Origin: Candidatus Woesearchaeota archaeon
GTDB lineage: Archaea; Nanobdellota; Nanobdellia; Woesearchaeales; ARS49
DNA: 64,000 nt
Assembly: GCA_016203305.1 (NCBI GenBank)
Contig: JACQMY010000036.1
Location: 1,886 to 65,885 of the forward strand
Reading direction: 5' to 3'
Both the position numbers and the translations under genes were made by a program. Position 1 is the stretch's first letter. Every line of letters begins with the position of its first letter. The notes below the pieces were generated by a model, which saw only the letters and a list, made by a program, of their open reading frames with translations, was not told the origin of the DNA and searched no databases. This document shows, piece after piece, positions 29,448-63,203 of this stretch.

Positions 29448-29448
29448 G

Positions 29449-30800: not shown

Positions 30801-31165
30801 CAGCCAAGCACCTTTTTCACTTCCGTAACTAGTTTCTGTTCCGTGACTGGCTTTGTGATATACGCCTTTACTCCCAATCTCAGCGCTTCATCAACGGTTT
30901 CTTTGGCGCGCACGATGCTTACCACGATGCATTTCACGGCAGGATTTATCTTCTTGAGCGCCCGAAACACATCAAGGCCGGCAGGTTCGCCAGGAAGCCG
31001 CAAATCAAGAAGCACTAAATCAGGCTTTTCTTTCCTGTATTTTTCCACGCCTTCGGCACCATTCTCCGCTTCAATGACATCCGTATAGCCGCCCTTTCGC
31101 AGCAAGTTTATGATAGCTTTTCGTTCAAACATCGAATCCTCAATGGTAAGTATTCTTTTTTTCAT
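30800..31165 (-). CDS. second CheY-like single-domain response regulator
   Basis: Receiver 'RILTIEDS', 'LVLLDLRLPG', 'KP'. Start moved to the internal Met (MKKRIL). The longer ORF 30800..31219 overlaps cheW. Confidence 0.75.
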   Translation of the reverse strand: MKKRILTIEDSMFERKAIINLLRKGGYTDVIEAENGAEGVEKYRKEKPDLVLLDLRLPGEPAGLDVFRALKKINPAVKCIVVSIVRAKETVDEALRLGVKAYITKPVTEQKLVTEVKKVLG

Positions 31166-31742
31166 GGGAGATCCTCCTTTTCGTTCTTTGACGCACGACC
31201 TCTTTTTTCGCGTCGGCAACGCTTTTTTGGGGCAATTTTTCCCCTTTCACTCCTCTCGACTCCGCCTGAATCACGATTTCATGCACGTCTGAACTCTCTT
31301 GTTCTGAGAGAATCTTTTGCAAATTCAAGAGTATGACCATACGTTCACCAAGTATGATGACTCCTTGAAGATACTCTGAATGGATTTTCGTTGATAAGAT
31401 CGCAGGCGTCTTCTTGATGGCGTCTTTTTCCGCCCGGAGCACTTCCGAGACCTGTTCAACGATGATGCCAAAAAGATTGTCGCCAGCATTCACGATAAGA
31501 ATGTGCTGCGGTTTGGATTCAGCAGTGACGTGAAATTTCTTTAGAAGATCAATTGCTACTATGATCTTTCCCCGTACATTGATGATTCCCTCGACAAAAA
31601 CAGGAGCGTTTGGAACCTTTGTTATCCTTGTTGCTTTGAGTATTTCCTTGACATCAAGGATCGGCGCAGCATACTCTTCTCCCCCGATAGCAAAAACAAC
31701 GAACTGCAGCTCCTCTTTTGGTTTTTCAAGCTCTGCGTGCAT
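31140..31742 (-). CDS. cheW: chemotaxis coupling protein CheW
   Basis: 'QFVVFAIGGEEYAAPILDVKEI' CheW-domain start. Confidence 0.85.
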   Translation of the reverse strand: MHAELEKPKEELQFVVFAIGGEEYAAPILDVKEILKATRITKVPNAPVFVEGIINVRGKIIVAIDLLKKFHVTAESKPQHILIVNAGDNLFGIIVEQVSEVLRAEKDAIKKTPAILSTKIHSEYLQGVIILGERMVILLNLQKILSEQESSDVHEIVIQAESRGVKGEKLPQKSVADAKKEVVRQRTKRRISHEKKNTYH

Positions 31743-31743
31743 A

Positions 31744-33681
31744 TTACCTTTTCGTTTTTTTCTTTATCCTTGGATCTTCATGCTGAACAGTTTCACGCGC
31801 TTCCTCGCGGGGTTCTGGACTCGTTTGTCGTTTTTGCGGCTCTTTACCCATAAGCACCTGAAGCCTTACGGCGATTTCCGCGAGTTGCCGTGCAGACGCG
31901 CTGACCTGTTGAACCGCAGCGCTCGTTTGCTGCATGGATGCACTTACTTGCTGCGTGCCGGCGGCATTCTCTTCAGCAGTCGCGGCAAGCTCGGTCATAG
32001 CAGCGACTATTTGCTGTGTGCCTGCTTGTTGCTGCTGCGTCGCCGCAGAAATCTCCTGCAACTGGGACGAGATACTTTGGGCAGCCAATGAGATATCTTT
32101 CACCGCATTGAGCGATGCGCCGATTACCTCCGAACCCTGGACGACTTGTTCCGCCCCCTTCTCCATCGAGCTTACCGCAGCATTCGTACTCTGCTGCATG
32201 TCCATGATAAGCGCGGAAATCTGTTCGGCAGCCCTTCCTGATTCTTCAGCAAGTTTTCTGACTTCATCAGCGACCACTGCGAATCCCCTGCCTTGCTCTC
32301 CTGCACGGGCAGCTTCAATGGCCGCGTTCAACGCAAGCAGATTTGTCTGCTCGGCGACGTCGTTGATAGTTTTGATGATTGTGCTTATCTTCGCGCTTTT
32401 CTCACCGAGCGCTTTTATGCCCGCCGTCGAGTCTAGAACACTGGTTTTGATAGCATCCAAATTCTTAACGCCCCGTTCAGCCGCGGTTCCTGCATCAATC
32501 GCTTTTTTGCTCGCATCAGCCGCGCTCTTCGCTGATTTCTGGGCGTTGTCCGCAACCTGGGTGATGGCTGACGACATCTCAGTGATGATTTTCCCAACCT
32601 CTTCAACCTTCTCGGTCGCCTTCGTACTTGATGCTGCCATCTGCTGAGTCGTAGAAGCTATCTCTTGAGTGGCGGATGCGGTCGAAGTGCTGGTTTCAGA
32701 GAGCTGTTCTGACGCGGTAGCAGTGTTCAAAGCAGTATCTTCAATTGTTGCGAAAATCTTTCTTATTAGGAAAAAGCTTACGAATCCCGTGATAAGCATC
32801 GCAACGAGCCCTATCAAAGAGAGCATTGTTGCGAATTGTTCACTTCTTTCCATCTCCCGCATCGTGATTGGTTGGAGTTCCTCATCGAGAAGCACATCCA
32901 TCTCACGGCTTGTTTTTGTGAACAGGTCTATATCGTACGTTTGCCTGTCTTCGTCAGCAATAGTCTCCTTTGTCAACACGCTTATCTTTTGCAATTCCAT
33001 CTTTATTTCCGCAAAGAAATCACGTTCTGCCTGAGAAAGCTCCAAGGTCCGATACCCATCCAGCAACAGTCCAGCACCAGCGATAGCACTATCGACACTC
33101 GTTTTCAGCTTTTGATCGGGCTTTATGAGATACAATTGCAGCAAAGACGTGATTTCGTAAGTCTTGCTTTCCAGCTTGAGAATGAGTTCCTTTTTCTCTC
33201 CCGAACGCGAATCATCCACTCTCAGCGCGCGTACATTGCTCGCAAGAAGTTCGCGCACCTTTTCTTCCAGCCGCAGCCGTTCTTCTCTTTTTTGGATCTG
33301 CTGATCCTCGAGCGCAAAGATTTCCTTCGCTTGAGAGTTGAATTGTTTCATAAACTCTCCGAACCGCAGGAGTGCGTAGCGTTCTTCATCGGTGCGCACA
33401 AGGGCGAGATACGCAGCATACTCCCGGTTCAAATCGTCACTGTTATCGGCAAACTGCACCTTTTCCTCAGGATTCTTTGTCGCTAGATAATCAACTACGT
33501 CTTTTGCGAATTCTTTTTGATTGATTTCCAACTCCATCGCCGCTTGAACCTTGGGAGTTGCATGTCCAACAAGTTCAACGACAGTCGAGCGTATAAAGAG
33601 AAGACTGCCGCCTGCTACCATCAGCACAATGAGAAACAAAGTTATCAATTTGGATTGAGCACCAAACTTTAGTTGAACCAT
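31744..33681 (-). CDS. methyl-accepting chemotaxis protein (two transmembrane segments, HAMP, signalling domain)
   Basis: Highly conserved signalling hairpin '...[34 protein letters not shown]...'. Confidence 0.9.
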
Positions 33682-34010: not shown

Positions 34011-35237
34011 ATGAACATAGGAACAAAACTCGTCTTACTTTTAATAACGGCAACAGGCATAGTTGCAGCAGCAGAGTACTATGCGCTCAGAACCATCAAC
34101 CACCCAATAAGCTTTGAAGTCCTCGCACTCACCGTAGCGCCACTCCTTTCAGCACTAGGAATAGGCATGCTGATGAGCTACAACGTCAGCAAAAACATCA
34201 AAAAACTAACGCACACAATAGAAGATATCAGCAAAGGAAAACTAGACGTGCACGTAGCAGGAAAAAACAGACAAGACGAAATCGGCGAACTCGCAAGAGC
34301 GTTCGACAGAATACTTGTATCGCTCAAGCTGGCAGTGGAAAAAGTAGGCCTGAAAAAAGAAGAACTCAAACTAGGGGAAGCACTAGAAGCAAAAGAAATC
34401 GCAGAACACCTAAAAAGAGAAGCAGAAGAAAGATACAAAGTACTCGCACAAACAAGCCCAGACTGCATCACCCTACTAGACAAACAAGGCAAAGTAGTCT
34501 TTATGAATTCAAGCGGGCTAAAAGAACACGGCTTCAAACAGCTAAGCCAAGCAGTAGGGAAAGACTACTTGGCATCAGCAATGAAAGACGAGTACAGAGA
34601 ACAAGGCAAACACGCGCTAACAAACGCGCTCAAAGGAAAAACAACAACACTGGAAGTCCAACACCGCACAATAGGCGCGCCAGAATGGAGCCTGGATACA
34701 TATACTCCTGTGAAGAGCGAGAAAGAGGAAATTACCCACATCCTGGTGCTCAGCAGAAACATCACAAAACTCAAAAAAACAGAGTCACAACTAGTAACAC
34801 AACGCAACTTCGTACAAGAGATGATAACAGGAGCAGGAGTGCCGATAATAGCATTCGACAACCACGGAAAACTCTTGCTTACGAACAAGACTCTTACGAA
34901 ACTGACAGGATATGAGCACATCGCGACCAAGCAAAACTGGCTGGAGACTGCATTCCCGACTGAGGCCAGAGAAAAGGTTGCCAAAGCGATTAGCGATGTT
35001 CAACGAGGGCAAGCAGTCACTGACTTTGTGACACCCCTGCGCTGCAAAGACGGAAGAGACATAATAGTAGTAAGCAACATCAGCCCAATAAAAGACGAGA
35101 AAAACAACATAACAGGAACAGTCATGTTCATGAGAGACCTAAGCGAAATATTCACACTAGAACAACAAATCATGCACTGGGCAAGCCAAGACCTAAGAAA
35201 ACCAGCAAACATAGAAATAACCAACCATAAGAGTTAA
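34011..35237 (+). CDS. membrane-anchored HAMP/PAS sensor protein with no kinase domain
   Basis: N-terminal transmembrane segments, HAMP, two PAS-like segments ('DCITLLDKQGKVVFMN', 'PIIAFDNHGKLLLTN'). Confidence 0.6.
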   Translation: MNIGTKLVLLLITATGIVAAAEYYALRTINHPISFEVLALTVAPLLSALGIGMLMSYNVSKNIKKLTHTIEDISKGKLDVHVAGKNRQDEIGELARAFDRILVSLKLAVEKVGLKKEELKLGEALEAKEIAEHLKREAEERYKVLAQTSPDCITLLDKQGKVVFMNSSGLKEHGFKQLSQAVGKDYLASAMKDEYREQGKHALTNALKGKTTTLEVQHRTIGAPEWSLDTYTPVKSEKEEITHILVLSRNITKLKKTESQLVTQRNFVQEMITGAGVPIIAFDNHGKLLLTNKTLTKLTGYEHIATKQNWLETAFPTEAREKVAKAISDVQRGQAVTDFVTPLRCKDGRDIIVVSNISPIKDEKNNITGTVMFMRDLSEIFTLEQQIMHWASQDLRKPANIEITNHKS

Positions 35238-35251
35238 AAACAATGCTTGGT

Positions 35252-35283
35252 TTGTAGTGTGTAGTTAGTAGTTACAAACTGCA
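35252..35283 (+). other. hairpin gtttgta-(18 nt)-tacaaac
   Basis: Same GTTTGTAG...CTACAAAC arms as the hairpin at 9626-9660. Confidence 0.5.
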
Positions 35284-35296
35284 AAGAGGTAAAAAA

Positions 35297-36046
35297 ATGG
35301 TCAAACGCGTTCAAACAGGAATAAAAGGATTTGACAAACTAGTCCAAGGAGGACTCCCAGAAAACTCAGTAACACTCCTAATCGGCACGCCAGGAACAGG
35401 AAAAACACTATTCTCACTGCAATACTTGCATAATGGAGCCACTAATAAGGAAAAAAGCATGTATGTGACTCTTGAACAGAGCTTGGAAGACATCAGAAGC
35501 CAAGCCAAGGATTTGGGAATGGATCTTGCGAAGGCAGAAAAAACAGGCATGCTGACGCTCATGCACATCCCAATACACGATCTAACTTTGAACACAATAG
35601 AGCAAATCAAAAAAGAAGCAGAAAAACGCAAAATCAAACGATTAGTCATTGACAGCATCTCAACACTCGCAGTAAATGCGCCAGTCTACACTCCTTTGAA
35701 AGATCTTGCACTCAGGGATGTCATGAACTACAAAGCATTCTTCTCACCGCCAATACTGGGAGACTTTGTGGTGAAACGATTCATCTACGGATTTTTATCA
35801 GATTTAAAACAACTGGGATGCACAACCATTGTAACAGGAGAAGCGCCAGAAAAAGGAGAATTCCTGACAAGGGATACTGTGAGCGAGTTTATTGCAGATG
35901 GCATAGTGAGCATCACCTTTGAGAGCATGGGAGGACAATACAGCAGGAGCCTACTCGTGCGCAAGATGCGAGGCACGAAAGCAGACGAGGACATACATCC
36001 ACTAGAAATCACTGACAAAGGACTTGTCATTCACACAGTCAAGTAA
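35297..36046 (+). CDS. KaiC-like RecA-superfamily ATPase (single domain)
   Basis: 'GIKGFDKLVQGGLPENSVTLLIGTPGTGKTLFSLQY' Walker A. 'LVIDSIS' Walker B region. Confidence 0.75.
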   Translation: MVKRVQTGIKGFDKLVQGGLPENSVTLLIGTPGTGKTLFSLQYLHNGATNKEKSMYVTLEQSLEDIRSQAKDLGMDLAKAEKTGMLTLMHIPIHDLTLNTIEQIKKEAEKRKIKRLVIDSISTLAVNAPVYTPLKDLALRDVMNYKAFFSPPILGDFVVKRFIYGFLSDLKQLGCTTIVTGEAPEKGEFLTRDTVSEFIADGIVSITFESMGGQYSRSLLVRKMRGTKADEDIHPLEITDKGLVIHTVK

Positions 36047-41771: not shown

Positions 41772-43379
41772 ATGAACCTGCAAAAAAAACTAACCATAAT
41801 AATCATAGGCATAGTTCTCATTCCAGGACTTGTAGCCTATTTCACAGTCCAGAAATCACTTGAACATGCCTCCAAGGAAGAAGCAACAAGCTACGGACTT
41901 CCAATAGCGCAACAAATCGCGAAAAATGCCGCCCCACTAGTAATACTCCAGCAAAGACAAGCCATCCATGAACTCATCACCCAAGCACGAGACCCACGAA
42001 TTTCTTACATAGTCATCACAAATCCACAACAAAGAATTCTGGCCAACACAGGAAAAATTCCTACAAAACTACCGCCTTTAACCGGACAGGCAACACTTGC
42101 AGAAGTAGATGGTGAAGAACTTTACGCCATAAGCTCCAAGCTCCCGCAAGAATTAGGAGAAGTCACAATAGGCATTAACACAAAAATGCCCACCAGCAAC
42201 ATCCTTCCACTAATCATACTGAGCACTATCCTCGCAGCAATAACTGCAATCTACACAACATCCAGAATAGTCAGCCCATTACGACAAATTTACAACTCAG
42301 CACACGAACTCAGCCAAGGAAATTTCAACACGAGAATAAACGTCAAAACAGGAGACGAACTGGAAGAATTAGGGAACACGTTTAACCAAGCAACAGAAGC
42401 ACTCGGCAGAATAGACCAAGAAAGAAAACAAATAGACCAAGCAAAGACAAGATTTCTCAGCATAACAAGCCACGAGCTAAGAAGCCCAATGACGCCCATG
42501 AAAGCACAATTGCAAATGCTCGGACAAGGATACTACGGCAAGCTTGGAACAAAGCAAAAACAAAGCGTGGAAATGGTGTTAAGAAACGCAGACCGATTGG
42601 ATTCAATCATTGGTGACTTCCTCGAAATCTCGCGCATAGAAGCAGCAAGACTAAGATTCACCTTCCAAAAAACAAACATTGCCGAAATTGTGCTTGATGT
42701 TGTAAAATACATGAACACATTTATGCCAGACAAAAAGGTAAGTCTGACCACAAAGCTAGGAAAACTGCCAGTTATCGAAGCAGACCCCAACCGCATAAGC
42801 CAAGTACTGCGCAACTTATTAAGCAATGCAATAAAGTTCTCACAGCCCAACAGCACAGTCACCATCGCGGCTGCCGTCAATGGAGAATTCATCGAGTTCA
42901 GCGTCCGCGACACAGGAATAGGCATTTCACAAAAAGACCAAGCAAAACTATTCGAGCCATTCTTCCAAGCAGAACAAACAATATACCGAGAAGGAAAAGG
43001 AGTGGGGCTAGGACTGGCAATCTGCAGAGGAATAGTACTAAGCCAAAACGGCAAAATCTGGGTTGAAAGCCAGCCAGGCAAAGGAAGCACATTCTTCTTC
43101 ACCCTGCCACTAACACCAGTAAAAGAAATAAGACCAATACGCGTACTATTCTCCAGCAAAGAAGCAATTGACCGCAAAATAAAAGAAGCCTTCAAAGAAA
43201 TGCTGGGACCCATCGGCAGCAGCGAATTTGACGACCTCAGACAAAACCTCACCCACGAAAGTCTCAGAAACTACGTAGACGAGCTCAGGAAAAGAAACAT
43301 AATAACACCAGAGCTTGCAGAACAATTCAAACACAGAGTAAACCACGCACTAATGGCAGATGTACATCATGTGAAGTAA
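41772..43379 (+). CDS. sensor histidine kinase (transmembrane, HAMP, HisKA, HATPase_c)
   Basis: 'ITSHELRSPMTPM' H-box. 'LRNLLSNAIKFS' N-box. 'DTGIGIS', 'GKGVGLGLAICRGIV' G-boxes. Confidence 0.85.
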   Translation: MNLQKKLTIIIIGIVLIPGLVAYFTVQKSLEHASKEEATSYGLPIAQQIAKNAAPLVILQQRQAIHELITQARDPRISYIVITNPQQRILANTGKIPTKLPPLTGQATLAEVDGEELYAISSKLPQELGEVTIGINTKMPTSNILPLIILSTILAAITAIYTTSRIVSPLRQIYNSAHELSQGNFNTRINVKTGDELEELGNTFNQATEALGRIDQERKQIDQAKTRFLSITSHELRSPMTPMKAQLQMLGQGYYGKLGTKQKQSVEMVLRNADRLDSIIGDFLEISRIEAARLRFTFQKTNIAEIVLDVVKYMNTFMPDKKVSLTTKLGKLPVIEADPNRISQVLRNLLSNAIKFSQPNSTVTIAAAVNGEFIEFSVRDTGIGISQKDQAKLFEPFFQAEQTIYREGKGVGLGLAICRGIVLSQNGKIWVESQPGKGSTFFFTLPLTPVKEIRPIRVLFSSKEAIDRKIKEAFKEMLGPIGSSEFDDLRQNLTHESLRNYVDELRKRNIITPELAEQFKHRVNHALMADVHHVK

Positions 43380-43385
43380 TAAATC

Positions 43386-43427
43386 AGGATGTAGGTTGTA
43401 GGAAGAAGAGTGGAGGATAATAAGATG
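43386..43427 (+). repeat. heptad (GNNNWAG) tract after the histidine-kinase stop
   Basis: ag gatgtag gttgtag gaagaag agtggag gataata. Confidence 0.5.
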
Positions 43428-43443
43428 GGCCCGAGGAGATTTG
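43427..43443 (+). repeat. 17-bp copy of the tRNA-Ile 3' end (att-like)
   Basis: GGGCCCGAGGAGATTTG is identical to 44641-44657 and 44745-44761. Confidence 0.65.
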
Positions 43444-43582
43444 GGTGTTTACCTTTTTCTTCAATTCTCTGGTAGTTAGATTATCTTGGATTAAGTATTG
43501 GTTGGGTATGTAGGTAGTTAATTTTTGCGCTCATTGTCCAGACCGATACATTTATATATCAGATGGCATATTTATATCTCAT

Positions 43583-44107
43583 ATGATACAAAAATATTCC
43601 AGATATAGAGTTTTGCAACAGTTTTTTGATTTTCCACGCAAAGCATTCTTGATTCGTGAGCTTTCGAGAAATACGAAGCTTTCAGTGCCTTCGGTTCGTC
43701 TCCACATTAAGGCTTTGCGCGCTGAAGGGCTTATCATAAAGGACAACACTGGCCTGTACCCTTCATTTAGAGCAGTGAGGGAAGACTCTTTGTTCAAACT
43801 TCTGAAAGCTCAGAACATGGTTTTAAGGCTCCATCAAACAGGCATTCTGAGCACCATCGAGAAAACTACGTACCCGTCTTGCATTGTGCTATTCGGTAGT
43901 GCTTCCCGAGGCGAAGACGCTGAGGAAAGTGATATTGATTTGTTCATGCAGGCAAAGCGAGTGAACCTTGATTTGAGAAAGTTCGAAAAGGCTTTGAACC
44001 GAAAGGTCAATCTTTTATTCGAACCCGATATGAAAACAATCAGTCCAGAGTTGCTCAATAATCTTGCAAACGGAACGGTAGTGTATGGGTATTTGAAGGT
44101 GATTTGA
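43583..44107 (+). CDS. minimal nucleotidyltransferase (MNT) with an N-terminal wHTH
   Basis: 'LFGSASRGEDAEESDIDLF' GS...DxD motif. Confidence 0.7.
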   Translation: MIQKYSRYRVLQQFFDFPRKAFLIRELSRNTKLSVPSVRLHIKALRAEGLIIKDNTGLYPSFRAVREDSLFKLLKAQNMVLRLHQTGILSTIEKTTYPSCIVLFGSASRGEDAEESDIDLFMQAKRVNLDLRKFEKALNRKVNLLFEPDMKTISPELLNNLANGTVVYGYLKVI

Positions 44108-44539
44108 TTGGAACCATGGACTGAACAATCTGATAAAGTAAGCAAACAACGACCTGACACTGAAAAAGCTCGCGCACTCCTCAAGATGATCGCCCTTCGA
44201 GAACAACGTGCCCAAATAACACCCCTTCCACAGTTTGCCACCTTGTTAGCAGAAGAACTATACGAAATCGTCAAGGAACTCATAACTGGAATAATGAGCG
44301 TTGACGGTTGGAAAACCGCCAGTCATGAACTGCTAATTGGATACCTCGCCAAATTCTATCCTGAATTTAGCACCGCAGAAGTCATGCTCTTGGATCAACT
44401 TCGGGAAATGCGAAACGATATCGCATACCGAGGCGTCATGATAAACCCAGAATATCTAGAGAGAAACCAACAAAATATCTCCAATGCCATTCAAAAACTC
44501 AAACAAATACTAAACGCAAGACTCAACAAAACAAGATAA
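44108..44539 (+). CDS. HEPN-like partner of the MNT
   Basis: Helical 143-aa protein directly abutting the MNT. 'LREMRNDIAYRG' occupies the position of the R-x4-6-H motif, but the His is not conserved. Confidence 0.45.
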   Translation: MEPWTEQSDKVSKQRPDTEKARALLKMIALREQRAQITPLPQFATLLAEELYEIVKELITGIMSVDGWKTASHELLIGYLAKFYPEFSTAEVMLLDQLREMRNDIAYRGVMINPEYLERNQQNISNAIQKLKQILNARLNKTR

Positions 44540-44632
44540 TCACGTTCAAACGTCGGAATTCCACCAGCCTGCTGGCTGGCGAAGTTCAAATCTCCTTGCA
44601 TGATGCGGATTAGCGCGAAGCGAATTAAAAAA

Positions 44633-44657
44633 GGTGGGCCCGAGGAGATTTGAACTC
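44633..44657 (+). repeat. 25-bp direct repeat of the tRNA-Ile 3' end (att-like scar)
   Basis: GGTGGGCCCGAGGAGATTTGAACTC is identical to 44737-44761 inside the tRNA. Followed by T-run on the minus strand. Confidence 0.75.
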
Positions 44658-44738
44658 AGTCCAACCCTTTTGGGCTTGGCCAAGTTCAAACTCCTCACTG
44701 CGCGGCCAGATGTTAGAGCTAACGCTGTGATCATTTGG

Positions 44739-44854
44739 TGGGCCCGAGGAGATTTGAACTCCCGACCACTGGTGGGCTTAGAACGTCCGGGTGTTGTTTT
44801 GTGCCAGACGCGGTCATATAAGACCAGTGCTCTACCAGGCTAAGCTACGGGCCC
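44739..44854 (-). tRNA. tRNA-Ile (anticodon UAU inferred) with a 42-nt intron; CCA encoded (44736-44738)
   Basis: Manual fold: acceptor GGGCCCG/CGGGCCC, D-arm GCTT-AGCCTGGTA-GAGC, anticodon stem CTGGT/ACCAG, loop CTTATA|intron|C, T-arm GGGAG-TTCAAAT-CTCCT, then ACCA. Anticodon depends on the canonical 37/38 intron placement. Confidence 0.6.
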
Positions 44855-44975
44855 AGTGTGCTCGAACTGTTACTGTATTAAAAACTCTTCGGCCATCACA
44901 ATCATTCATCTCAGAAAACCCAAACCAGTATACAAAAGAGTAACTTTTATATACTTGAGTTCTTGTGAAATACTT

Positions 44976-46046
44976 ATGCGTCACGTCGTCATCGCGCTAG
45001 CCGCATTGGTAATACTCCTCGGACTTGCAACAACCCTTGACAGAATTTCACTAGCACCTGCTGTTGTTGTAGAAACAATCATCCAATGCAACGATGGAAC
45101 GTTCGCACACTCACCAGAAGAATGCCCACTTCCACCAGTTCCAACACCAGTACAATTTGAAAGCACTGCATCAGCAGCAGTACAACCACAAATCACAATG
45201 CAGGAAGACCCGATCGGAAAAACATTCCTAAAAAAAATGCCACAAAATTACGTCTACAACAAAGGAGAACTTCCAATATACGCGTCAGGGCCAAGCAGAA
45301 GCACAGGAGAATGGCCGTTCGTCGCACCAGGAATACTCTACTGGAACGTTGAAGACAATAAAGCACTCTACGTCTACCCAGGAGATATCTCACCAGGATG
45401 GTGGGCAGAATACACAAACCAAACAAAACAGGTGATCACCACTGACCTGGTCGGCGCAAGCCTCTACCCCGCAGCACTAATAAGACTACAACTCACAGGA
45501 AACAAAGACCTTGACGAAAACCTGCTGCCAAAAGAATTCCTCAAATACTTCAACTTCCTCTTCAGAGGCACTTTACGCGAAGACAACATAATAAGAACCA
45601 TCGAACCATTCTACAGCAAAAGCCCAATAGAATGGTTTGCCAACTATGCAAGCGACCAGCCGGTCAAAGTCGATACCAAGGAACGAGTTCTCCCAACCAT
45701 TGGCGGAAGCATAATGAGCAAGCTCTCACTACACTATTCAAGCAAGGAAACGACCCAACGCATTCTACGAACACAAGAAGGAAGCGCCTACGAATACAAA
45801 CCAACCCAGTCAGCAGAAATAGTTTTCCGCTTTGATCCAAGAGGAATACCACTAGTTATCGACGAGCTTGACACAGAAGGAAACCTAATCGAAAGACACA
45901 CTTACACAGTCCAGACAACATACAACAGAGATGGCGTGATGAACACCCCAGTGGATCCAAGAATCGTAAACCTACCACCACACCTAATTGTAACAGTCCA
46001 AGACTGGGAAAAATGGACAAACAGCAAAGAAAACATAATGAGATGA
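44976..46046 (+). CDS. hypothetical secreted or membrane-anchored protein
   Basis: Start set at the internal Met (MRHVVIALAALVILLGL, signal/TM). The longer ORF from 44856 would overlap the tRNA. Confidence 0.45.
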   Translation: MRHVVIALAALVILLGLATTLDRISLAPAVVVETIIQCNDGTFAHSPEECPLPPVPTPVQFESTASAAVQPQITMQEDPIGKTFLKKMPQNYVYNKGELPIYASGPSRSTGEWPFVAPGILYWNVEDNKALYVYPGDISPGWWAEYTNQTKQVITTDLVGASLYPAALIRLQLTGNKDLDENLLPKEFLKYFNFLFRGTLREDNIIRTIEPFYSKSPIEWFANYASDQPVKVDTKERVLPTIGGSIMSKLSLHYSSKETTQRILRTQEGSAYEYKPTQSAEIVFRFDPRGIPLVIDELDTEGNLIERHTYTVQTTYNRDGVMNTPVDPRIVNLPPHLIVTVQDWEKWTNSKENIMR

Positions 46047-46999
46047 ACATGGACGCCCCTGAAAGTACACTAGAAGAACATAATCCAGAACAAGAAGCCA
46101 AAAACCTGCCAGAAGAACAGGCAACGCCTTCAGCCGGCCAACAGCGCAAGAAAAAACAGCCTGCGCAAAAACCAACCAATAAAAACTCAAACGAGCAAAT
46201 GGATTTCTCAAAACTCAAAGAAAAACTCCAACAAACCCAAAGCGCGCCTACCATCGCCATATCAGGCAAAACGCACGTAGGCACAGGAATCGACGGCATA
46301 GACCAACTGTTTGCCAAAGGAATCCCCCGCGGAAGCACAACACTGGTTGTCGGAGGACCAGGAAGCGGCAAAACAATCTTCTGCCTGCAAACCCTATACG
46401 AAGCAGCAAAAGCAGGAGAGAAAGTCCTCTACATGACACTAGAAGAAGACACTGAAAGACTAAGACAACACATGAAAGACTTCGGATGGGATATAACGCC
46501 ACTAGAAAAAAGAGGCTTCTTTGTAATAAAAAAATTCAACCCAATGGACATCACAAGACAAATGGACGCAATGCTTGAACAAGTAAGAGGAGAACTCCTC
46601 ATCGACCTAAAGCCGCTCTTAATCCCAAAAGATTTTGAACCAGACAGAGTGGCGCTCGACAGCCTGTCAGCAGTCGCGGCAGCACTATTTGAAAAAGAAG
46701 AAAGCTACCGCTTATACCTGGAACAACTATTCAAACTCTTCAACGACATTGGAAGCACAGCATTTTTGATATCAGAAACCCCAGACCCGACGCAAAAACT
46801 AAGCGCCACAGGAACAGAAGAATTCCTCGCAGACGGAGTATTCATCTTCTACAACGTGAGAACAGGGAACTCAAGAGAAAGCGCATTCGAAATCCTCAAA
46901 ATGAGAGGAGCAAGCTTCAAGAAACAAATAGTGGCAATGCAAATCAAAGAAAACGGCATAGTCGTCTATCCAGAACAAGAAGTGTTTACGACGATATAG
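46013..46999 (+). CDS. KaiC-like RecA-superfamily ATPase with a low-complexity N-terminal extension
   Basis: 'GIDGIDQLFAKGIPRGSTTLVVGGPGSGKTIFCLQ' Walker A. 'VALDSLSAV' Walker B region. Confidence 0.75.
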   Translation: MDKQQRKHNEMNMDAPESTLEEHNPEQEAKNLPEEQATPSAGQQRKKKQPAQKPTNKNSNEQMDFSKLKEKLQQTQSAPTIAISGKTHVGTGIDGIDQLFAKGIPRGSTTLVVGGPGSGKTIFCLQTLYEAAKAGEKVLYMTLEEDTERLRQHMKDFGWDITPLEKRGFFVIKKFNPMDITRQMDAMLEQVRGELLIDLKPLLIPKDFEPDRVALDSLSAVAAALFEKEESYRLYLEQLFKLFNDIGSTAFLISETPDPTQKLSATGTEEFLADGVFIFYNVRTGNSRESAFEILKMRGASFKKQIVAMQIKENGIVVYPEQEVFTTI

Positions 47000-47134: not shown

Positions 47135-48055
47135 TCACCCCTTTCTAAACCGGTTCAGCAACGCATACCTCCGATACTTCTGAACACCAGACTTCCAAGC
47201 AGCAAGCTCTGCCTTAACTTTCCGTCCACGCTCACGCAACTGCTCCATACGCTGCCGATATGAAAACCTGCCCATCTTACCAGCAAAATACTCCTCCTGA
47301 ACATGTTGCAAAGTCTTATTCGTTGCATCAATCACCCTTGAAGCCTCACGCTCCTTCTGCAAAGCAAACATCACGCGAAACTCAAGCCAGCCCCAAACTC
47401 CCAAAATAGCCAGGATTGCCAGAACCACAATCACACCGATCGTATGCCTCTTGACAAACTCTGTTATGTTCTTCTTTGCAATATAAGCAAACGTGCGTTC
47501 ACGAACGGCAGCAGACTCTGCCTCTGCCAAATGCATCCTAGTGGCATGCACCAAGACAAAAACTTCATCGTACCGTTCTGACTCAAAAGCATCACGCGCC
47601 TTTTCAAACGTCCGGTCAACCAAAGACATATTTACCGAAACATTCACCTGAACCAACAACGCACCCAAATCCTCCAACGCATCACGAGCGTCAAAAGCAG
47701 AAACCTTTTTCTCAGCAATCCATCGCCCAAGCTCAACCACTCTGGTTAAATTCTGACCGGGCCTCAACCCAGCACTCCGCGCTTGTGCAATCATCCTGAA
47801 ATACTCCTCAGCAAGAGGCTTTCCCTCCACTGATTCGTTCAAGTGGACAGCAGTCTGCAACAACGCGAACTCATCACGGCCAACCAAAGAGTCGTTCATT
47901 CTCAATAACGTATCTTCCAAAGAAGCATATGGAAGACCTGCCTTTTTAACCTGAGCAACATCAACAGTAGCGTTCAAAAACACCTCTTTTGCCTGCTCAA
48001 CAGAAACTGCACAAGCCAAAGAAGACAAAACAATTAACAAAAGCAACCACTTCAT
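47135..48055 (-). CDS. signal-peptide protein with a C-terminal TM helix and basic coiled coil; paralog of the giant protein's C-terminal anchor
   Basis: Signal 'MKWLLLLIVLSSLACA'. TM 'IGVIVVLAILAILGVWGWL' followed by a 'QEEYF'-type coiled coil, mirroring the C-terminus of the 4872-aa protein ('WWALALLAALALYGAL...EAQEAYF'). 4-nt overlap with it. Confidence 0.6.
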   Translation of the reverse strand: MKWLLLLIVLSSLACAVSVEQAKEVFLNATVDVAQVKKAGLPYASLEDTLLRMNDSLVGRDEFALLQTAVHLNESVEGKPLAEEYFRMIAQARSAGLRPGQNLTRVVELGRWIAEKKVSAFDARDALEDLGALLVQVNVSVNMSLVDRTFEKARDAFESERYDEVFVLVHATRMHLAEAESAAVRERTFAYIAKKNITEFVKRHTIGVIVVLAILAILGVWGWLEFRVMFALQKEREASRVIDATNKTLQHVQEEYFAGKMGRFSYRQRMEQLRERGRKVKAELAAWKSGVQKYRRYALLNRFRKG

Positions 48056-51000
48056 TTTCCCACCTCTTTCCTCAACTCTGCAATATGCGCGTCCAGCTCA
48101 GTTACCAAACTCTTGAACACCTGCATTCGAAGCTCATATCTCCTCCTGGAAATAACGTGATGAGCAAAATATGCCAATTGAGCCTCGCGCAAGCCACGCA
48201 TTGCCTCCTGGCGTTCTGCGATGGCCACCTTCAAAGCCTGATCCTTTCGGTACAAACGAGAACGCAACAAGCGCAGCCCAACCATGTCGCCAGTAATTCT
48301 TTCCAAACGCAACTGCAACTGGCCACTTGCACGCTCGAACTCCCTGCCACCAAGCTCGCGCCTGACAAAATAAGCCTCCTGAGCCTCACGCAACAACCGC
48401 TGCGCCTCAACACGCTCGCGCAACAACGCATCCAACCTGTACTTTATGAACGCAAGACGCGCAAGAAGCACTGCTTTAAGAGCGCCATACAAGGCAAGCG
48501 CTGCCAGCAACGCCAAAGCCCACCAGTACCTGCGCGCAACACTCTGCCACGTCCAAGCACGCTCTACAACTCTCAACTGCACGGCGAGCGCTTCATCTGC
48601 CAACGAGATCGCACGATCAAAGTCCTCACGCTCGAATGCCTTAACAGCAAGAGAAAGCAACTTCTCAACAGCAAGAACGTCAAGCCCTTCGTCCTCTGCC
48701 TTGTTTATCTCTGTCCTTACCTTATCCAACAAAGCGCCTGCTTCCAACTCGCGCTCCAACAACAAACGCAACTTCTCAACAACATACGCAGACTCCTTGT
48801 AATCACGTTGAACAAGAGCGTTCCTTAACATTCCGCGCAACACATCAGCCCGAGTAACAGGATAATCCTTTGCCACAACTATTGCATACAAGCTCTCCAC
48901 ATCAGTATAAGCACGCTCAACCTCATCCGATGTAACTTCTCGAATAATCAAACGGACCCGTTTGTACTCAACAACAGTCTTCCTAATCTTGGTTGAAAAC
49001 GGCAAACCATTCCTGAACTCAACACCCTCTGCTTCCAACAGAGAAGTCATTATGAAGGTTATGTTTACTTCTGATTGCTGCTCATAAGCAGGAGCGGCAA
49101 GCTCGATATCGAAAATCCTACTCTGCCCATACGGAATGTTCTCCAATGCTTGCGGGGACCAGTGAATGTATCTTGAGAGGTAGCCGTCAACAGTTAAATC
49201 AACACGTTTCATCAAGGAATTATTGTAAACGTTCGTAACAATCAACGGAAATACTATTCTTGTACCACGCTTAACCTCGATAGTCTCATTTGTCACTAAG
49301 GCAGCTCGCTCAAAAAATGTCTTCTGGAACGTGCCGGGATCTATCCCTCCACCGCCACCGCCCGCACCTCCTGCGCCACCAGCACCACCACCGCTGCCTG
49401 AGCCGCCACCTCCTACAACAAATCCAGGACCGGCAACAACCAATACTTGAGCCGTTGTACCAAGCGTCAAGTTCTGAGAAGAAAGCAGGACGCCAGAATC
49501 ATTAAACCCGTCAGCTGCAGTGCTAACATCCCTGAACCCAAGAACTGCGCCTGATGGAATCTGCACAATAATCGGCAACTCCTCACTAGCATTCGGTTCG
49601 ATCGTTCCAAAGAACGTTGACAAACCACCACCAGTTAGCACCCAATCAACAGGCAAGGTTATATTCAAAGTCACATTAGACGCATTCTTCGTGCCTCTGT
49701 TAGTTACCCTTGCAATAATCGAAATTCCTGACTGGCCACGCTGCACTTGAGACGGAATTACTGAAAAGTCGGCAAACAAGAATGCATCATCCACAGTTGT
49801 AATTGTGAAACTTGTGTTCAACTGCGCAGGAGACGCGTTCAGCGAGCTGCCAACAGTGGTCGCGTTGATAGTGATATTATTAGAGAATACACCAACAGTC
49901 CCAGGAGCAGTCGCGTTAACACCCACCATTCTGACCCCGCCAGGAGAAAGAGTAAAGTTAGTCTCGCTGAAGAAGGTGGCATTAAGAGTAGAGTTCAACA
50001 CAAACGATAAGTTCACATCCCCTGTATTATTAATAGTTATATTGCCCATCGAGATATTGACCCCCATCGGACTTGAGAACACACCCAAATTGGCAGGAGA
50101 ACGCGTCCACGTAGCCTCGAATGAAACATTAAACACTACAATTCCAGACGTGCCATTATTTCCTGCGGTGTCATTCCCAGTCATAAACACGATATAACTC
50201 CCCTCGACTGCAAGGAACGAAGCATTAAACTCACCAGTCAAGACATTGAACGACATCGACACATTTGCAAAAGAAGAACCGTTCACCACTATATGCAACA
50301 CCACAGAGTTCAAGTCAACAGCGGTGAAATTATCAGTAATGTTCGCAGTGAAATTAATCAACACTCCTGGATCCAGCGCGTCAACCGTACTCGGAGAGAA
50401 TAACAAACTCAAGAAGTCAGGAGGAGTACGGTCAACAGCAAATACCCTCGTTTCAGACGTGCTTGTATCAGCCGAAGTATCAGTACATGCAACCGCCCAA
50501 GTATAGTTGCCCTCTGACAGGCCTGAGACAGTAAAGTTTACCACTGAGTTATTCAGAACCGAAGAATTTGTCTGATTAACTGAACCATTCAACAACAATG
50601 AACAATTCAAAGTTGCAGACTCCGCGTCAGTCACGTTGGCAAAAAACAACACTGTCAAGTTTGTCGTGTTCGTCCCATTAGCAGGAGCAATGGAAACAAC
50701 AACAGGGGAGAGACCTGAAATAACCGTTGTCGACTCCGTAGCATTCACCTGCACAAACTCGCCTGACACGCTTACCGCTGACACGTTCACAGAGTTATTC
50801 AAAACAGTGCCGTTTGCAATACCATTGCTAACGTTCACCAAAATAGACAAGTTCACAGACGCGCCAGGAGAAAGATTGCCTAGCGAGAACGTACTATTGC
50901 CCGAAGCAGGGGCAGGAGAAGAACTCACAAACAACACGCCAGACGGATAGGTTTCATTCACCGTCACGTTATATGCAATCTCGCCGTCCAGATTCTGCAC

Positions 51001-54000
51001 TGTGATCGTGTAATTCAATTGCGACCCTTGCAAAACAGGATCAACAGAGTCAGATTTTGAAACAGCCAACGCAACAATACCTGCGATTGTTGTCGTCGTA
51101 CTATTCGTTACCGTAAAGTTCTGCCCTGTTGCGTTGGCAAACGAAACGTTATACGAATTATTCAACAATGAACCGTTGAAGGCAGCAAAGCTCACGTTAA
51201 CAGTAATGTTAATCGTTGTTGAACCTCCAGGCAAAATATTGCCAACGCTAAACGTGCCATTTCCTGAGCTTGGAAGAGGCTGACTGCCATTGAACGTCAC
51301 ATTAACAGGATAACCCTCAACAACAGTAACGTTGTACGCAATGTCATCACCAACATTGTTCACCATAATCTGGTACCGCAATGTTGAATTCACCGGAACA
51401 GGATCAGGACTATCAGACTTTGAAGTAAACACAACAGCGAATCCTGTAACAGTTGTGACCTCTGTATCGCTCGACGACCTATTACCGCCAGACGTGTTCT
51501 GGAATGAAACATTCACAAAATTTGAAAGCAACGTTCCATTTGCCAAGCCATTGCTCACATTAACAGTAATGTTCACAGTTGTAGACGCATTCGGAGACAA
51601 GTTACCTAGAGAAAACGTATTGTTTCCAACAGTTGGAACAGGACTACTGTTGTGGAACACAACACCAGACGGATAAGTTTCTGTCAAAGTAACATTAAAC
51701 GCAACATCATCACCAGTATTGTTAACCAAAATACTATAATTCACCTGCTGGCCTTTTATGACCGGATCGGGTGAATCAACTTTTACAACCGAGATCGTTG
51801 CAGCACCCAAAACAGTAGTCGTTGTGCTATTGCGCACAGTCGTGTTCACCCCAGAAACGTTTGCAAACGTAACGTTATAACTATTATTCAAAACCGAACC
51901 ATTCGCTGCAGCAGCGCTTACGTTCAGGGTAATATTCACTGTAGCGCTCTGACCAGGAGACAAGTTACCAAGCGAGAACGTATTGTTCCCAACGCTTGGA
52001 GCAGGACTGCTGTTGTGGAACGTAACATTCTCAGGATAATTCTCAACAACAGTCACATTATATGCTATCTCATCACCAAGGTTGCTTACCACAATGGAAT
52101 ACTGCAACTGCTCGCCTCTTGCGACCGGATCAGGAGCATCAGACTTGCTCGTAAATACAACAGGGAAACCAACAACAGTAGTCTGTTCAGTATCACTCGC
52201 GCTCTGATTTAGCCCAAACGTATTCTGGAAAGAGGCATTTGCAGTATTGTTCAACAACGTTCCATTTGCCAAGCCATTGCTCACATTAACAGTAATGTTG
52301 ACCGTTGTTGAAGCATTCGGAGACAAGTTACCTAGCGAAAACGTATTGTTTCCAACAGTTGGAACAGGACTACTGTTGTGGAACACAACACCCGACGGGT
52401 ATGAATCCAAAAACGTCAAGTTGAACGCAGTATCATCACCAGTATTGTTGATTAAGATACTATAATTCAACTGCTGACCCTTAACAACAGGATCAGGACT
52501 ATCGGTCTTAATCGTAACAACAACCGGCGCGCCCAGCACACTCGTAAGAGTGCTATTCGTAACCGTAGCGTTCTGACCAGAAGCATTCGCAAAAGTCACA
52601 TTATAACTATTGTTCAACACCGTACCATTCACCAATCCAAGGCTCACGTTCACAGTAATATTCACCGTTGTTGACATGTTTGGCGAAAGATTGCCTACTG
52701 AGAACGTGCCGTTTCCTGAGCTTGCAACAGGACTACTACTATGGAACAAGACACCAGAAGGATAACTCTCAACAACAGTCACGTTGAACGCAGTGGAGTT
52801 GCCAGTGTTGTTGATTAAGATGCTATAGTTCAACTGCTGACCTTTCACAACAGGATCAGGACTATCGGTCTTTGAAGTCGAGATAGAAGGCGTAACAAAT
52901 AGTGCAGTGAAGTTCGTAACCTCAGAGCTATTGACTCTGCCACTAGTATCATTCGCTATAATTGTCACATTGTACAAACCAGTGAGCGGGATGAAGAAAG
53001 ATGCATTATACTTACTTGTGCCAGGAACAATCACCAACACAACCTGCTGTATTGTTCCATTAGGCAAGGTCACGTTGGCAAGCACGGTATCAATAACGCC
53101 ATCATCAGTCACGTTGGCAGCAAGCTCAATTGTCTCACCAATGTTAAACGTGCTATTCACAACAGGCCTCAAGTCAAACACCAATGGAGTCACCAAGTCA
53201 CAAGTCCCATCCCACGAACTGCCATCAGTGAAGAAGCCTTTAAACACGCCCTGGCCAGAACTATTCGTGTATGCAACCACAAACCTGCCAGGACAGATAG
53301 AGTTATTTGTAACTGAAACACGACCTGCAACATCCAACAATCTGAACGTACTATTAGGCTGAGACTCGACTGTTATCTCGTTGCTTATGTTGGAACCACT
53401 CGCATTAAAAGTAGCTGCCTTGATCGCACCAGCATTCTCATCCCACCACGCGACAACAGCCACATCCTCAGAGCTTGTCTCATTCATCTTCACAGTACCC
53501 GCCGAAATTCGCGAAATGACTCCTGCATTCCCATCGATAGATGCCGGAGCGAACAGCACCACGTTATCGCTCGTCCTGCCAGCAATGTAAACGTTCTGAT
53601 CAACAGAATCGTAGAATGCCATGAAGAAAGAATTGTTCACTAATGAGCTATTCCCAAGCGAGGTCATCGCAACCTGCCCAGTTTCGCCGACATCAGCATC
53701 TATGTCAACCTGGCCTGTCAACAATGCCCCCGTCTCACTTTGAATGCTGAAAGTAGCATCGTTTGACAAGTCATCAAACCAGAAGTACGCCCACCGTGTA
53801 CTATTCGCACCAGCGCATCCAACCAAATTCTCATTAGGAGCAGCAGGAGCCATGTTGCCATCAACCGCTAACTCCCCAACAGACTGAGTTCCATTATTGA
53901 AGAACGTCAAGAATGACGCGTCTGCGTTCCCATCATTCGCATAACACGTCACAGACTGGTTAACGATAGAGGCAAGCTTCACATCAGTATTCAAACCAAT

Positions 54001-57000
54001 CCCTGCACGCACAACAGTCGGAGAAGTTGTGTTCGTTCCATTTATCAGGAACAGCCCCTGGGTCAAGTCATCAGATGGCCCATCAACCCACGAAATCAAA
54101 AAGTGCGTGCTATTGACCAAAGCAACATCAACCCGCGAAACATTATCCGCAGAAGTATCAACATCAGTCGTGTTCACAATCACGGTTCCATTCGTGTTCA
54201 TAATTCTAAATGAGACATCAGATTCATTGTTGTCAACAAACGCTATCACAAATGCGGTATTGTTAACAGGCGCAATAGCGACATCAACAGCAGAGCTTGT
54301 TTCAAGGAAGCCAGGGTCGTTCGGCGTGATAGTTATTGTATAATTCTGTCCAGGAGAGATGTTCATTATTTCAGACCAGTTACCCAAACACTCCTGACCT
54401 GAGAAGTTATAATTCTTACACGTGTACAAAAGATAGTCTCCAATCGCAGTAACCACTACGCTTGCATTGGTGAAATTAATCCCAGTCGGATCGATAGCGT
54501 ACTCGACAAAGGAGCCATTCGGCGTCTGGCTCTCTGAGAACGGATCATCAATGCGCAAAATACTCAAAATGCTGCTTGAATTGTGCAACAGCATGCTGAT
54601 AGATTTCACACGCGACCCGCTAATATTCGCAGAAAGGTTCAACATGCCAGAAACATTACTCGTCACGGACAAAGTGTAGTTAACAAATCCACCCGTACGG
54701 TTGACTATGTCGATCACATTCAAGCTCTGCCTTATGAACGTCAGCGTGAAAGAGTTGTTCACATTATTCAAAGTATCATTCGCAAATATTCTGATCGTAT
54801 AATTACCACGCTGCGTCAAGTTTGAGAATGACAAATTATACAAAGAGCCAGTAACGTTTGTCGAAAAGTTCTGCAAAGTGCCATCTGGATAGGTAATCTG
54901 CACCATAACCGTGCCAACACCCAGCCAATCAGTCACGTTCGCCGTGATGTTAATAGTATCGTTCAACAAGAACGAACCGCCAGCAACAGGACTCAACACT
55001 GAAACATTCGGAGGATTAACCTTAACGACAACTTGCCGCGTCTCAGTATTGTTGATATTGCCAGCCAAGTCAAACACTGTTGCATTAAAGAAGTACAAAC
55101 CGTCCGCAAGACCTGTGAAGTTCACAAAGTTAGGAGAACTGGAAGTATTACTGCTGTTAATCTCTCCGCCAGTCGAGTTGAACAAGCGAATTGTGGTGTT
55201 CGCAAAGTTCACGTCTGTTCCGGTCAAATTAACCAGGATATTCCGCCTCGCAATTGTGGAACCATTCGCATCAGTCGGAGAAACAAATTCAGCAGCCGGC
55301 CTCAAAGTATCAATCGTAATCGTCCTGTTCCCAGTCTGATTCGAATTACTACCTATATCGCTCACACTGCCAAAGTACTGGTACACGCCATCCGCAAGAC
55401 CTGTGAAGTTATTGAAGAACGACATGTTCAAAGGAGTGTAAGTAATATTTGACTGGTCAATAGTTGCAGTAACTGCAATCACCGGAGCATACTCGATGGT
55501 ATTCGATCCTATAAGCAAGAAGTTTGAAGCATTCTCAAACGTCTTCGGAGAAACATCAGAAGTTCCAATTGTCCCAACATTGTTCCCGTTAACAAGCACG
55601 TTCAAAGTACCGGAAATTACGGAAAAAGTGGCTGTCAAATTAGCCCTTGAAGCATTATCGGCAATAGTAATGACATGGCTCTGTGAGGTAAGACTTGCGA
55701 CAAAAGTTATGTCAGTGCCATTCGCTTCTGACCTGAGAGGAGTTGTAAAGTTCACACGAGAGCCATTAAGCTCGATAAGCGCAACACTCATGTTCGCTTC
55801 GTCAACAGAAATGTTCACGGGCACAAACGTATTGCCTGTAAACGTGTTGTCAGCAGGAGTTGGACCTACAAATCTAATCTGTGGAACAATGGTATCTAGC
55901 CCTACATTGAATGACGTCACCACTGTATTATTGATGTTGCCTTCAGTATCGTTCGCCCTGAAAGTAATATTATACTGCCCGTTCAAGTTCGGCGTTATGA
56001 AAGACCCATTATATTTATCCGTACCTGGAACTCTGGTCAAGTTAACCAAGAACGTCGTACCATTAGGGAAAGTAATGTTCGCAGTCACGTTATCAACAGC
56101 AATATTATCTGTAACGTTTGCAGAGATCTCGATCACGATGCCTGGAGCGAATGCCGTTCCTTCAAACGGACGCACATCAAACACCAAAGGCTGAATAGTG
56201 TCTGCAATAACTGTTGTGTTCTGAGAAGCATTCTGAGTAAAGTTAACACCAGACAGGTTGGCAAAAGTCACGTTAACAGTGTTATTGATGACCGTGCCAT
56301 TCGCCAGACCACGGCCAATATTCAATGTGATGTTAATTGTCGTGAAAGTTCCATTCGTCAGGTTTCCAAGCAAGAACGTATTGTTGCCCGAGCTTGGAAC
56401 AGGTTGGGAGCCATTGAATACTACGCTCACAGGATAATCCTCAAAAACAGTAATGTTATACGCGATCTCATCACCAGTATTGTTCACAACAATCTGATAC
56501 CGCAACGTAGCACCACGCACAACAGGATCAGGACTATCAGACTTATTTACAGAAACTTGAGCAAAGCCAAGAACTGTTGTTAGCTCTGAATCAGACACTG
56601 TGACATTCTGACCAGAAGCATTAGCAAAAGTAGCAGAAACACTATTGTTCAAAACAGAGCCGTTTGTCAAGCCATTACTCACATTAACAGTAATGTTAAT
56701 CGTGGTTGACTGGCCAGGCAACAAAGTGCTAAAGCCAAACGTGTTATTGCCGCTACTTGGAGCAGGCGTACTTGAATGAAACACAACACCAGATGGATAG
56801 CTCTCAACAACAGTCACATTATAAGCGATCTCACCACCCGTATTATTCACAAATATCGAATAGTTCAACTGCTGACCCTTTATGACGGGGTCAGGATTAT
56901 CATTCTTAATCGTGATAACAATAGGAGTACCCTGCACATTCGTAGTAGTACTGTTAGTCACGGTCGTGTTAACACCTGAAACGTTTGCGAACGTCGCATT

Positions 57001-63099: not shown

Positions 63100-63203
63100 G
63101 CCGCGGTAGTATAGTCCGGTCAAGTATTCGGCCCTTTCGAGGCAGCCAGCAAGTGCTGGTCCAAAGCTAGGCTGAGACACGGGTTCAAATCCCGTCCGCG
63201 GCA
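63100..63203 (+). tRNA. tRNA-Glu (anticodon UUC) with an intron of about 29 nt
   Basis: Manual fold: acceptor GCCGCGG/CCGCGGC, anticodon stem CGGCC/GGCTG, loop CTTTCG|intron with ccagca-ag-tgctgg hairpin|A, T-arm ACGGG-TTCAAAT-CCCGT. T-run follows. Confidence 0.65.

Follow-up and report, generated by a model that had tools for sequence, protein, structure and literature searches.

A tRNA-Ile gene with a UAU anticodon and a bulge-helix-bulge intron in a Woesearchaeota contig

In the standard archaeal route, the codon AUA is read by tRNA-Ile2(CAU), in which C34 is converted to agmatidine (agm2C) by TiaS. Here, we analyzed a 64,000-nucleotide stretch of DNA (the window) that contains a tRNA gene apparently suited to the same task, reading AUA as Ile without reading AUG, but with a T at position 34 in place of the C that needs TiaS. 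The locus raises the question of whether it encodes a functional AUA reader and, if so, what its intron and its unusual 3′ end signify. Comparison with related sequences makes it very probable that the gene is a functional minor tRNA-Ile(UAU) of a DPANN (Woesearchaeota) archaeon that reads AUA. A U34 tRNA would then split the AUA/AUG pair, instead of the agmatidine (TiaS) system on which most archaea depend.

The tRNA gene, its intron and its anticodon

The pre-tRNA gene, including a CCA in the DNA, occupies 44736..44854 of the minus strand, as judged from the Rfam match over 44739–44854 and from reading of the sequence. The Rfam family RF00005 matched minus-strand positions 44854..44739 as a full-length cloverleaf (model positions 1–71) with 58.4 bits, above the gathering score of 29 (E 4.9e-10), and the alignment placed a 43-nt insertion directly after ...CUUAUA. 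The 38-nt 5′ exon (GGGCCCGUAGCUUAGCCUGGUAGAGCACUGGUCUUAUA, 44817..44854, minus strand), which comprises positions 1–37 with a 17a and is the same in the relatives described below, reads GGGCCCG UA GCUU AGCCUGGUA GAGC A CUGGU CUUAUA. It is followed by a 42-nt intron (UGACCGCGUCUGGCACAAAACAACACCCGGACGUUCUAAGCC, 44775..44816, minus strand) at the canonical 37/38 site, assigned by hand analysis of the bulge-helix-bulge (BHB) motif and from an RNAalifold consensus. The 36-nt 3′ exon (44739..44774, minus strand, positions 38–73, from Rfam and the sequence) holds, in order, C38, the 3′ strand of the anticodon stem, a 5-nt variable loop, the T arm, the 3′ strand of the acceptor stem and A73, so that the gene after the intron reads C ACCAG UGGUC GGGAG UUCAAAU CUCCU CGGGCCC A CCA.

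The cloverleaf is canonical in all four arms, with every stem intact. Excision of the intron yields the mature anticodon loop C-U-U-A-U-A-C, and thereby the anticodon U34-A35-U36 (44818..44820, minus strand), encoded wholly 5′ of the intron and located from both the Rfam alignment position and the BHB register. The Rfam score and the spliced loop together bear out the preliminary description, which had called the gene a tRNA-Ile with a UAU anticodon. That description had looked to tRNA-finding software for a check of the gene and its intron, and here the outcome was divided. Rfam placed the insertion after CUUAUA, as expected, but ARAGORN, run on the window, reported the Val and Gly tRNAs only and was silent on the tRNA-Ile(UAU) gene.

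The body of the tRNA is of Ile type, with a GGGCCCG/CGGGCCC acceptor stem, A73, U12-A23 and C4-G69. It fits the pattern that we used to scan for Ile bodies (GGGC...UAGCUYAG..GGU..AGAGC, A73, C4-G69, U12-A23), as do the 49 archaeal UAU tRNAs listed in that scan. Sequence resemblance and established identity rules suggest an Ile identity. Position 38 is usually an A in tRNAs; it is a C here and in the closest relatives. A TATA-like A/T-rich box, recognized by sequence (TTTTTAATA, 44876..44884, minus strand), lies ~22–30 nt 5′ of tRNA position 1 and is a putative archaeal promoter. The three remaining tRNA genes of the window are likewise preceded by A/T-rich sequence, at about −30 to −24. The locus at 44736..44854 is a real, intact archaeal tRNA gene.

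The precursor can adopt a strict hBHBh′ motif. In this motif, C32-U33-U34-A35 pairs with UAAG (44780..44777) near the 3′ end of the intron, and the resulting helix is flanked by two bulges of 3 nt each, U36-A37|U and C-C|C38. The anticodon stem serves as the outer helix, and the inner intron helix is formed by GA/UC plus GCGUCUGG/CCGGACGU and closes an A/C-rich loop. All elements of a canonical BHB are present: two 3-nt bulges on opposite strands, a 4-bp helix between them, flanking helices, and predicted cuts at 37/38. In the minimum free energy (MFE) fold of the single sequence the weak 4-bp central helix stays open, and the hand-built cloverleaf with the BHB has an energy of −40.2 kcal/mol against −46.9 for the MFE fold. 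RNAalifold, run without constraint on the window gene and six close relatives (7 sequences), gave the CUUA/URAG 4-bp helix, both 3-nt bulges and the inner helix. The 42-nt intron at the canonical 37/38 site, as claimed previously, was therefore recovered as a strict BHB without prompting.

The decisive evidence for the intron position comes from these relatives, one on a genome contig (L046) and five on metagenome contigs (L121-L125), all of which have the exact 38-nt 5′ exon, a 41–43-nt intron at 37/38 and C38. Across the seven homologues a single G-to-A change is the only difference between the exons. The partner of U34 in the central BHB helix is A in five of the sequences and G in two, and four pairs of the inner helix have undergone double-sided compensatory changes, which is the covariation expected of a BHB intron maintained by selection. 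Since the exons are near-identical in the six relatives and the intron changes are compensatory, the pattern carries the signature of purifying selection on both the tRNA and the BHB. Any other register of a 42-nt excision would either retain UAU or place a pyrimidine at position 37, and thus the UAU call is robust.

The intron was also considered as a box C/D guide, which we rejected as the RUGAUGA/CUGA boxes are absent on inspection by eye. Among the scanned ORFs of the 64-kb window, none matched the Pfam families of the splicing endonuclease EndA or the ligase RtcB.

The 3′ flank and alternative readings of the locus

The DNA does read CCA after A73 (44736..44738, minus strand), in agreement with the preliminary description, but comparison with L046 and L121-L125 indicates that the encoded CCA is probably not a trait of this gene. 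Past the end of the tRNA the window gene reads ACC-AAATGATC..., whereas the six close homologues end GGGCCCACCT..., that is, GGGCCCACC followed by T. None of these six encodes CCA, and neither do the other three tRNAs of the window (0/3). The CC is probably ancestral, as the relatives read ACC-T, and the A of CCA is probably the first base of a downstream insert. The encoded CCA is therefore probably incidental, arising at the junction with the insert.

The region downstream of the gene contains further copies of the tRNA 3′ end. The 25-mer at 44737–44761 is repeated exactly as a direct repeat at 44633–44657 (GAGTTCAAATCTCCTCGGGCCCACC, minus strand), starting 104 nt downstream, and such a repeat had 0 matches in 100 shuffles. 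This second copy ends ACCTTTTTT, TTTTTT, with the T6 at 44627–44632 (minus strand). The same ending is found in L046 and L124, which suggests that the second copy and its T6 were originally the end of the gene and its terminator. The tRNA-Ile gene itself is not immediately followed by a T-run, the nearest one on its 3′ side lying past the repeat, 104 nt away. A third, degenerate copy (43424..43448, minus strand, 19/25 identical, including the exact 18-mer TGGGCCCGAGGAGATTTG on the plus strand) lies ~1.2–1.3 kb beyond the second.

The spacer between the tRNA and the repeat (44658..44735, minus strand) weakly resembles the intron and the 3′ exon, for example at UGGCCGCG and CCAAGCCCA. The 79 nt between the first and second copies cannot form a T stem (3/5 pairs), and an Rfam scan of 43300–45000 in E-value mode for tRNA-like fragments returned the real gene only, with no match in the spacer. 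A 20-nt motif is common to the spacer and 44577–44596; further copies of it were not found. The spacer may be a remnant of an inserted or duplicated segment. Copies two and three bracket a 1.2-kb segment with a gene for an MntA-like HTH-nucleotidyltransferase (43583–44107) and a 143-aa ORF (44108–44539). Independently, L124 repeats the 3′ end ~70 nt downstream of its own tRNA gene. We infer that the 3′ end of this tRNA-Ile is a recurrent att-like site of insertion or duplication. As at an att site, direct repeats of the tRNA 3′ part bracket foreign DNA. The 79-nt and 1.2-kb segments, examined for an integrase and other genes of an element, contain the MntA-like gene and the 143-aa ORF only, and since an integrase is absent from both, they are at best remnants. 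Scars of insertion or duplication downstream of the gene would explain the fortuitous CCA.

These scars bear on whether the gene is functional. If it were a decaying or redundant pseudogene copy left by rearrangement, with AUA read by another tRNA such as tRNA-Ile2(CAU) with agmatidine, then the exact repeat, the degenerate third copy and the lack of a terminator-like T-run right after the gene would be unsurprising. We consider this very unlikely, because the stems are intact, the full Rfam model is covered, and the exons are identical or near-identical to those of six relatives while the intron diverges through compensatory changes. Decay is instead seen in the downstream copy, which has 3/5 T-stem pairs and lacks a 5′ half. 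The presence of this 3′-half-like fragment just downstream could also suggest that the intron lies elsewhere, or that the locus is one piece of a split or permuted tRNA, such that the mature anticodon would not be UAU. Non-canonical or multiple introns are frequent in DPANN tRNAs, and among the matches listed ~10 UAU homologues show a further insert in the T arm. Nevertheless, such an arrangement is barely credible here: the precursor has a single BHB, which puts the cuts at 37/38, the alternative registers do not yield another plausible anticodon loop (UAU is kept or position 37 becomes a pyrimidine), the D arm, T arm and acceptor stem are contiguous and canonical, and the downstream fragment is missing a viable T stem.

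A different reading of the same repeats is that the tRNA is carried by a mobile element, with the att-like sequences marking an integrated element that has its own AUA decoder. In its favor, three direct copies of the 3′ end bracket the 79-nt and 1.2-kb segments, the larger of which holds an MntA-like nucleotidyltransferase gene, typical toxin-antitoxin cargo, and the second 3′-end copy in L124 is independent. However, the position of the repeats, 3′ of the gene, is the one expected of elements that enter a host tRNA gene, there is no adjacent integrase (the sole one scanned, at 24136–25395, is beside tRNA-Gly), and the relatives carry the same tRNA in different, unscarred contexts. An origin within an element is thus improbable, and we favor a functional tRNA-Ile(UAU) gene of the host, into the end of which DNA was inserted or duplicated.

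AUA decoding and the proposed pathway

We examined the use of AUA in the window. AUA accounts for 220 of the 766 Ile codons in 20 ORFs (29%, or 34% when a giant ORF is left out). The FtsY gene has five AUA codons, which were compared with 100 homologues. Three fall in columns that are 100% Ile, another at a site where Ile (81%) alternates with Val (19%), and the last at a site that is 95% Val; none of the five aligned with Met. By this comparison, AUA keeps its standard meaning, Ile. Since AUA makes up 29–34% of the Ile codons and is used at Ile-conserved positions of FtsY, a dedicated AUA reader is needed.

Scanned ORFs of the window gave no Pfam match to TiaS or IleRS, which is weak evidence from a 64-kb sample. 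Ile-type tRNA(CAU) and tRNA(GAU) were both sought in 405 kb of archaeal loci plus the window and neither was found, hence this search has no positive control. A literature search for DPANN archaea with TiaS or agmatidine turned up nothing relevant. Published precedent in other DPANN archaea suggests that tiaS and tRNA-Ile2(CAU) may be absent from the source genome, although both systems could coexist.

We propose the following pathway for the tRNA-Ile(UAU). The precursor would be transcribed from the A/T-rich box ~25 nt upstream and, as the sequence and its covariation show, fold into a cloverleaf whose anticodon arm is extended by the strict BHB. In line with the established archaeal pathway, the splicing endonuclease would cut in both 3-nt bulges, after A37 and before C38, and an RtcB-type ligase would join the exons. 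A 3′ trailer, probably of ~100 nt and ending at the first T-run beyond the repeated 3′ end, would be removed, with the CCA either already in place or added. The mature tRNA would then be charged by an IleRS of the archaeal/eukaryote type and read AUA as Ile, replacing tRNA-Ile2(CAU) and the agmatidine made by TiaS.

Known systems with a UAU anticodon offer two models of how U34 might avoid AUG. By analogy with Mycoplasma mobile, U34 could be unmodified and rely on a specialized IleRS and ribosome; alternatively it could be modified, for example to pseudouridine, as in eukaryotes. In M. mobile, U34 of tRNA-Ile2(UAU) is unmodified (PMC3575796). This tRNA and the UAU tRNAs of CPR bacteria from our scan (see below) resemble the window gene in that they occur in reduced genomes and serve AUA with a UAU tRNA rather than a modified C34, but they are bacterial, have no intron and are charged by a bacterial IleRS. 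The cytoplasmic tRNA-Ile(UAU) of eukaryotes is also a minor AUA reader and has a 37/38 intron and an archaeal/eukaryote-type IleRS (PMC4090602). Its anticodon is Ψ-A-Ψ, and formation of Ψ34 and Ψ36 by Pus1 in yeast depends on the intron (PMC4090602).

By analogy, the intron-containing precursor of the archaeal tRNA might be needed for a modification of U34, so that UAU reads AUA and not AUG. We regard this as unlikely, yet several observations are compatible with it. U34 and A35 sit in the central BHB helix of the precursor, beside a conserved A/C-rich loop, and a YACAA-like start of this loop after the inner helix is common to several introns from Woese-, Micr- and Iainarchaeota. The 37/38 intron is kept in 37 of 50 archaeal UAU tRNAs (the 49 listed plus the window gene). 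Of 18 neighboring tRNAs from 20 of these genomes, no more than 7 have the length to accommodate an intron. The UAU tRNAs of Korarchaeum and ARMAN are also intron-bearing (PMC6000648, PMC3239211). Against such a role, 13 of the 50 UAU genes lack the intron, the comparison with neighboring tRNAs is small and uncontrolled, and the source of the window is rich in introns anyway (3/4 tRNAs). Were it true, the intron of DPANN tRNA-Ile(UAU) would be more than baggage.

Lineage, distribution and genomic setting

The preliminary description had taken the UAU anticodon as a clue to lineage, naming Nanoarchaeum and Korarchaeum, and the direction of this clue was right. The FtsY ORF (5507–6838, minus strand) matches a protein in NCBI from 'Candidatus Woesearchaeota archaeon' with 100% identity, which places the window in DPANN, a broad grouping that also includes Nanoarchaeum. 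The next-best FtsY matches with a source name (56–85% identity) bear the labels Woesearchaeota, Nanoarchaeia or uncultured archaeon.

The accompanying statement, which limited UAU-bearing tRNA-Ile to a few known lineages, no longer holds. Among 167 archaeal genomes, UAU was recorded in two, Nanoarchaeum and Korarchaeum (PMC6000648). [quoted passage not shown] We scanned contigs from one genome per species for an Ile body with CTTATA and obtained at least 120 loci. Among the matches listed, at least 49 UAU loci are archaeal and at least 71 are bacterial, the latter mostly from CPR/Patescibacteria. The archaeal labels in this set include nine Woesearchaeota as well as Micr-, Aenigm-, Iain-, Pace- and Marsarchaeota, Nanoarchaeia and unlabelled entries, and almost all of the listed archaeal loci with a lineage label are DPANN. 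The tRNA-Ile(UAU) is thus unusual for archaea in general and routine in DPANN.

The intron is similarly widespread. Among the matches listed, 36 of the 49 archaeal UAU genes have an intron of 13–79 nt at 37/38, and in most of these 36 CUUA is paired to a URRG that precedes a 3-nt bulge. Across the 36, the sequence on the 3′ side of this central helix is mostly UAAG, UGAG, UAGG or UGGG. All nine listed genes with a Woesearchaeota label have the Ile-type body, CUUAUA, the 37/38 intron, and URRG with a 3-nt bulge. Besides the 37/38 intron, the genes of L034, L052, L058, L059, L061, L078, L085, L088 and L095 have a further insert in the T loop or T arm. Three loci with an intron-containing, DPANN-type tRNA-Ile(UAU) (L046, L026 and L061) are titled 'uncultured Methanosarcinales archaeon'; this label looks unreliable, at least for L046, whose exons are identical to those of the window gene.

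We compared the window gene to the archaeal systems described previously. The ARMAN genes (Micrarchaeota/Parvarchaeota) are also of DPANN origin, carry UAU and have their intron at 37/38 within a strict hBHBh′ motif, but it is 25 nt long rather than 42 nt (PMC3239211). The pre-tRNA-Ile(UAU) of ARMAN-2, with its 25-nt strict-BHB intron at 37/38, was cleaved in vitro (PMC3239211). The window gene differs in its C38 and its Woesearchaeota lineage, and it is for ARMAN that cleavage and the absence of TiaS have been reported. Nanoarchaeum equitans and Korarchaeum cryptofilum share the UAU anticodon and lack tiaS (PMC6000648, PMC3575796), and the Korarchaeum gene, as does the window gene, contains an intron (PMC6000648). 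Since Korarchaeum, unlike the source of the window, lies outside DPANN, UAU probably arose more than once. Replacement of tRNA-Ile2(CAU) and TiaS by a UAU tRNA therefore has precedent in Nanoarchaeum, Korarchaeum and ARMAN (PMC3575796, PMC6000648, PMC3239211). The window gene itself does not depart from the known DPANN pattern. Decoding of AUA by UAU-type tRNAs appears common across DPANN archaea and CPR bacteria, beyond two or three oddities, and tRNA-Ile(UAU) should be useful as a taxonomic and annotation marker for DPANN contigs.

Introns are present in three of the four tRNAs of the window, as noted previously. Hand analysis identified tRNA-Val(UAC) (8367–8439) with no intron, tRNA-Gly(GCC) (25455–25538, minus strand) with a 13-nt intron at 37/38 in a relaxed BHB, and tRNA-Glu(UUC) (63100–63203) with a 29-nt intron at 37/38 in a strict BHB, in addition to the 42-nt intron of tRNA-Ile. 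In L046 (430–669), the tRNA-Ile(UAU) gene lies next to a tRNA-Glu(UUC) gene with window-type exons, in convergent orientation. Their counterparts in the window are divergent and separated by 18 kb that includes the giant ORF, indicating that the locus has been rearranged.

A tyrosine recombinase of the XerA/phage-integrase family with a C-terminal zinc ribbon (24136–25395, minus strand) is encoded 60 nt past the 3′ end of tRNA-Gly(GCC). An integrase beside a tRNA 3′ end is the classic layout of a tRNA-integrated element; no second copy of the tRNA-Gly 3′ end, as an att repeat, was found in the window. Genes for an HTH and nucleotidyltransferase (MntA-like) protein, each followed by a small ORF, occur twice, at 43583–44107/44108–44539 (plus strand) and 15504–16091/15004–15507 (minus strand). 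The ORF at 15004–15507 has a HEPN domain, and the arrangement therefore resembles HEPN/MNT toxin-antitoxin pairs.

The window also contains a chemotaxis cluster (26464–33681, minus strand) with CheD, a CheC-like protein, CheA, an Hpt protein, CheB, a CheY-like receiver, CheW and an MCP. PAS/HAMP sensor proteins and KaiC-like ATPases are encoded near the cluster (34011–36046, 41772–43379 and 46013–46999), and signaling seems unusually rich for a DPANN genome. The giant ORF (48052–62670, minus strand) encodes 4872 aa with DUF11 (15 stretches), DUF7507, DUF7619, TRAP-beta-like and Ig-like repeats, and is probably a huge surface or adhesion protein.
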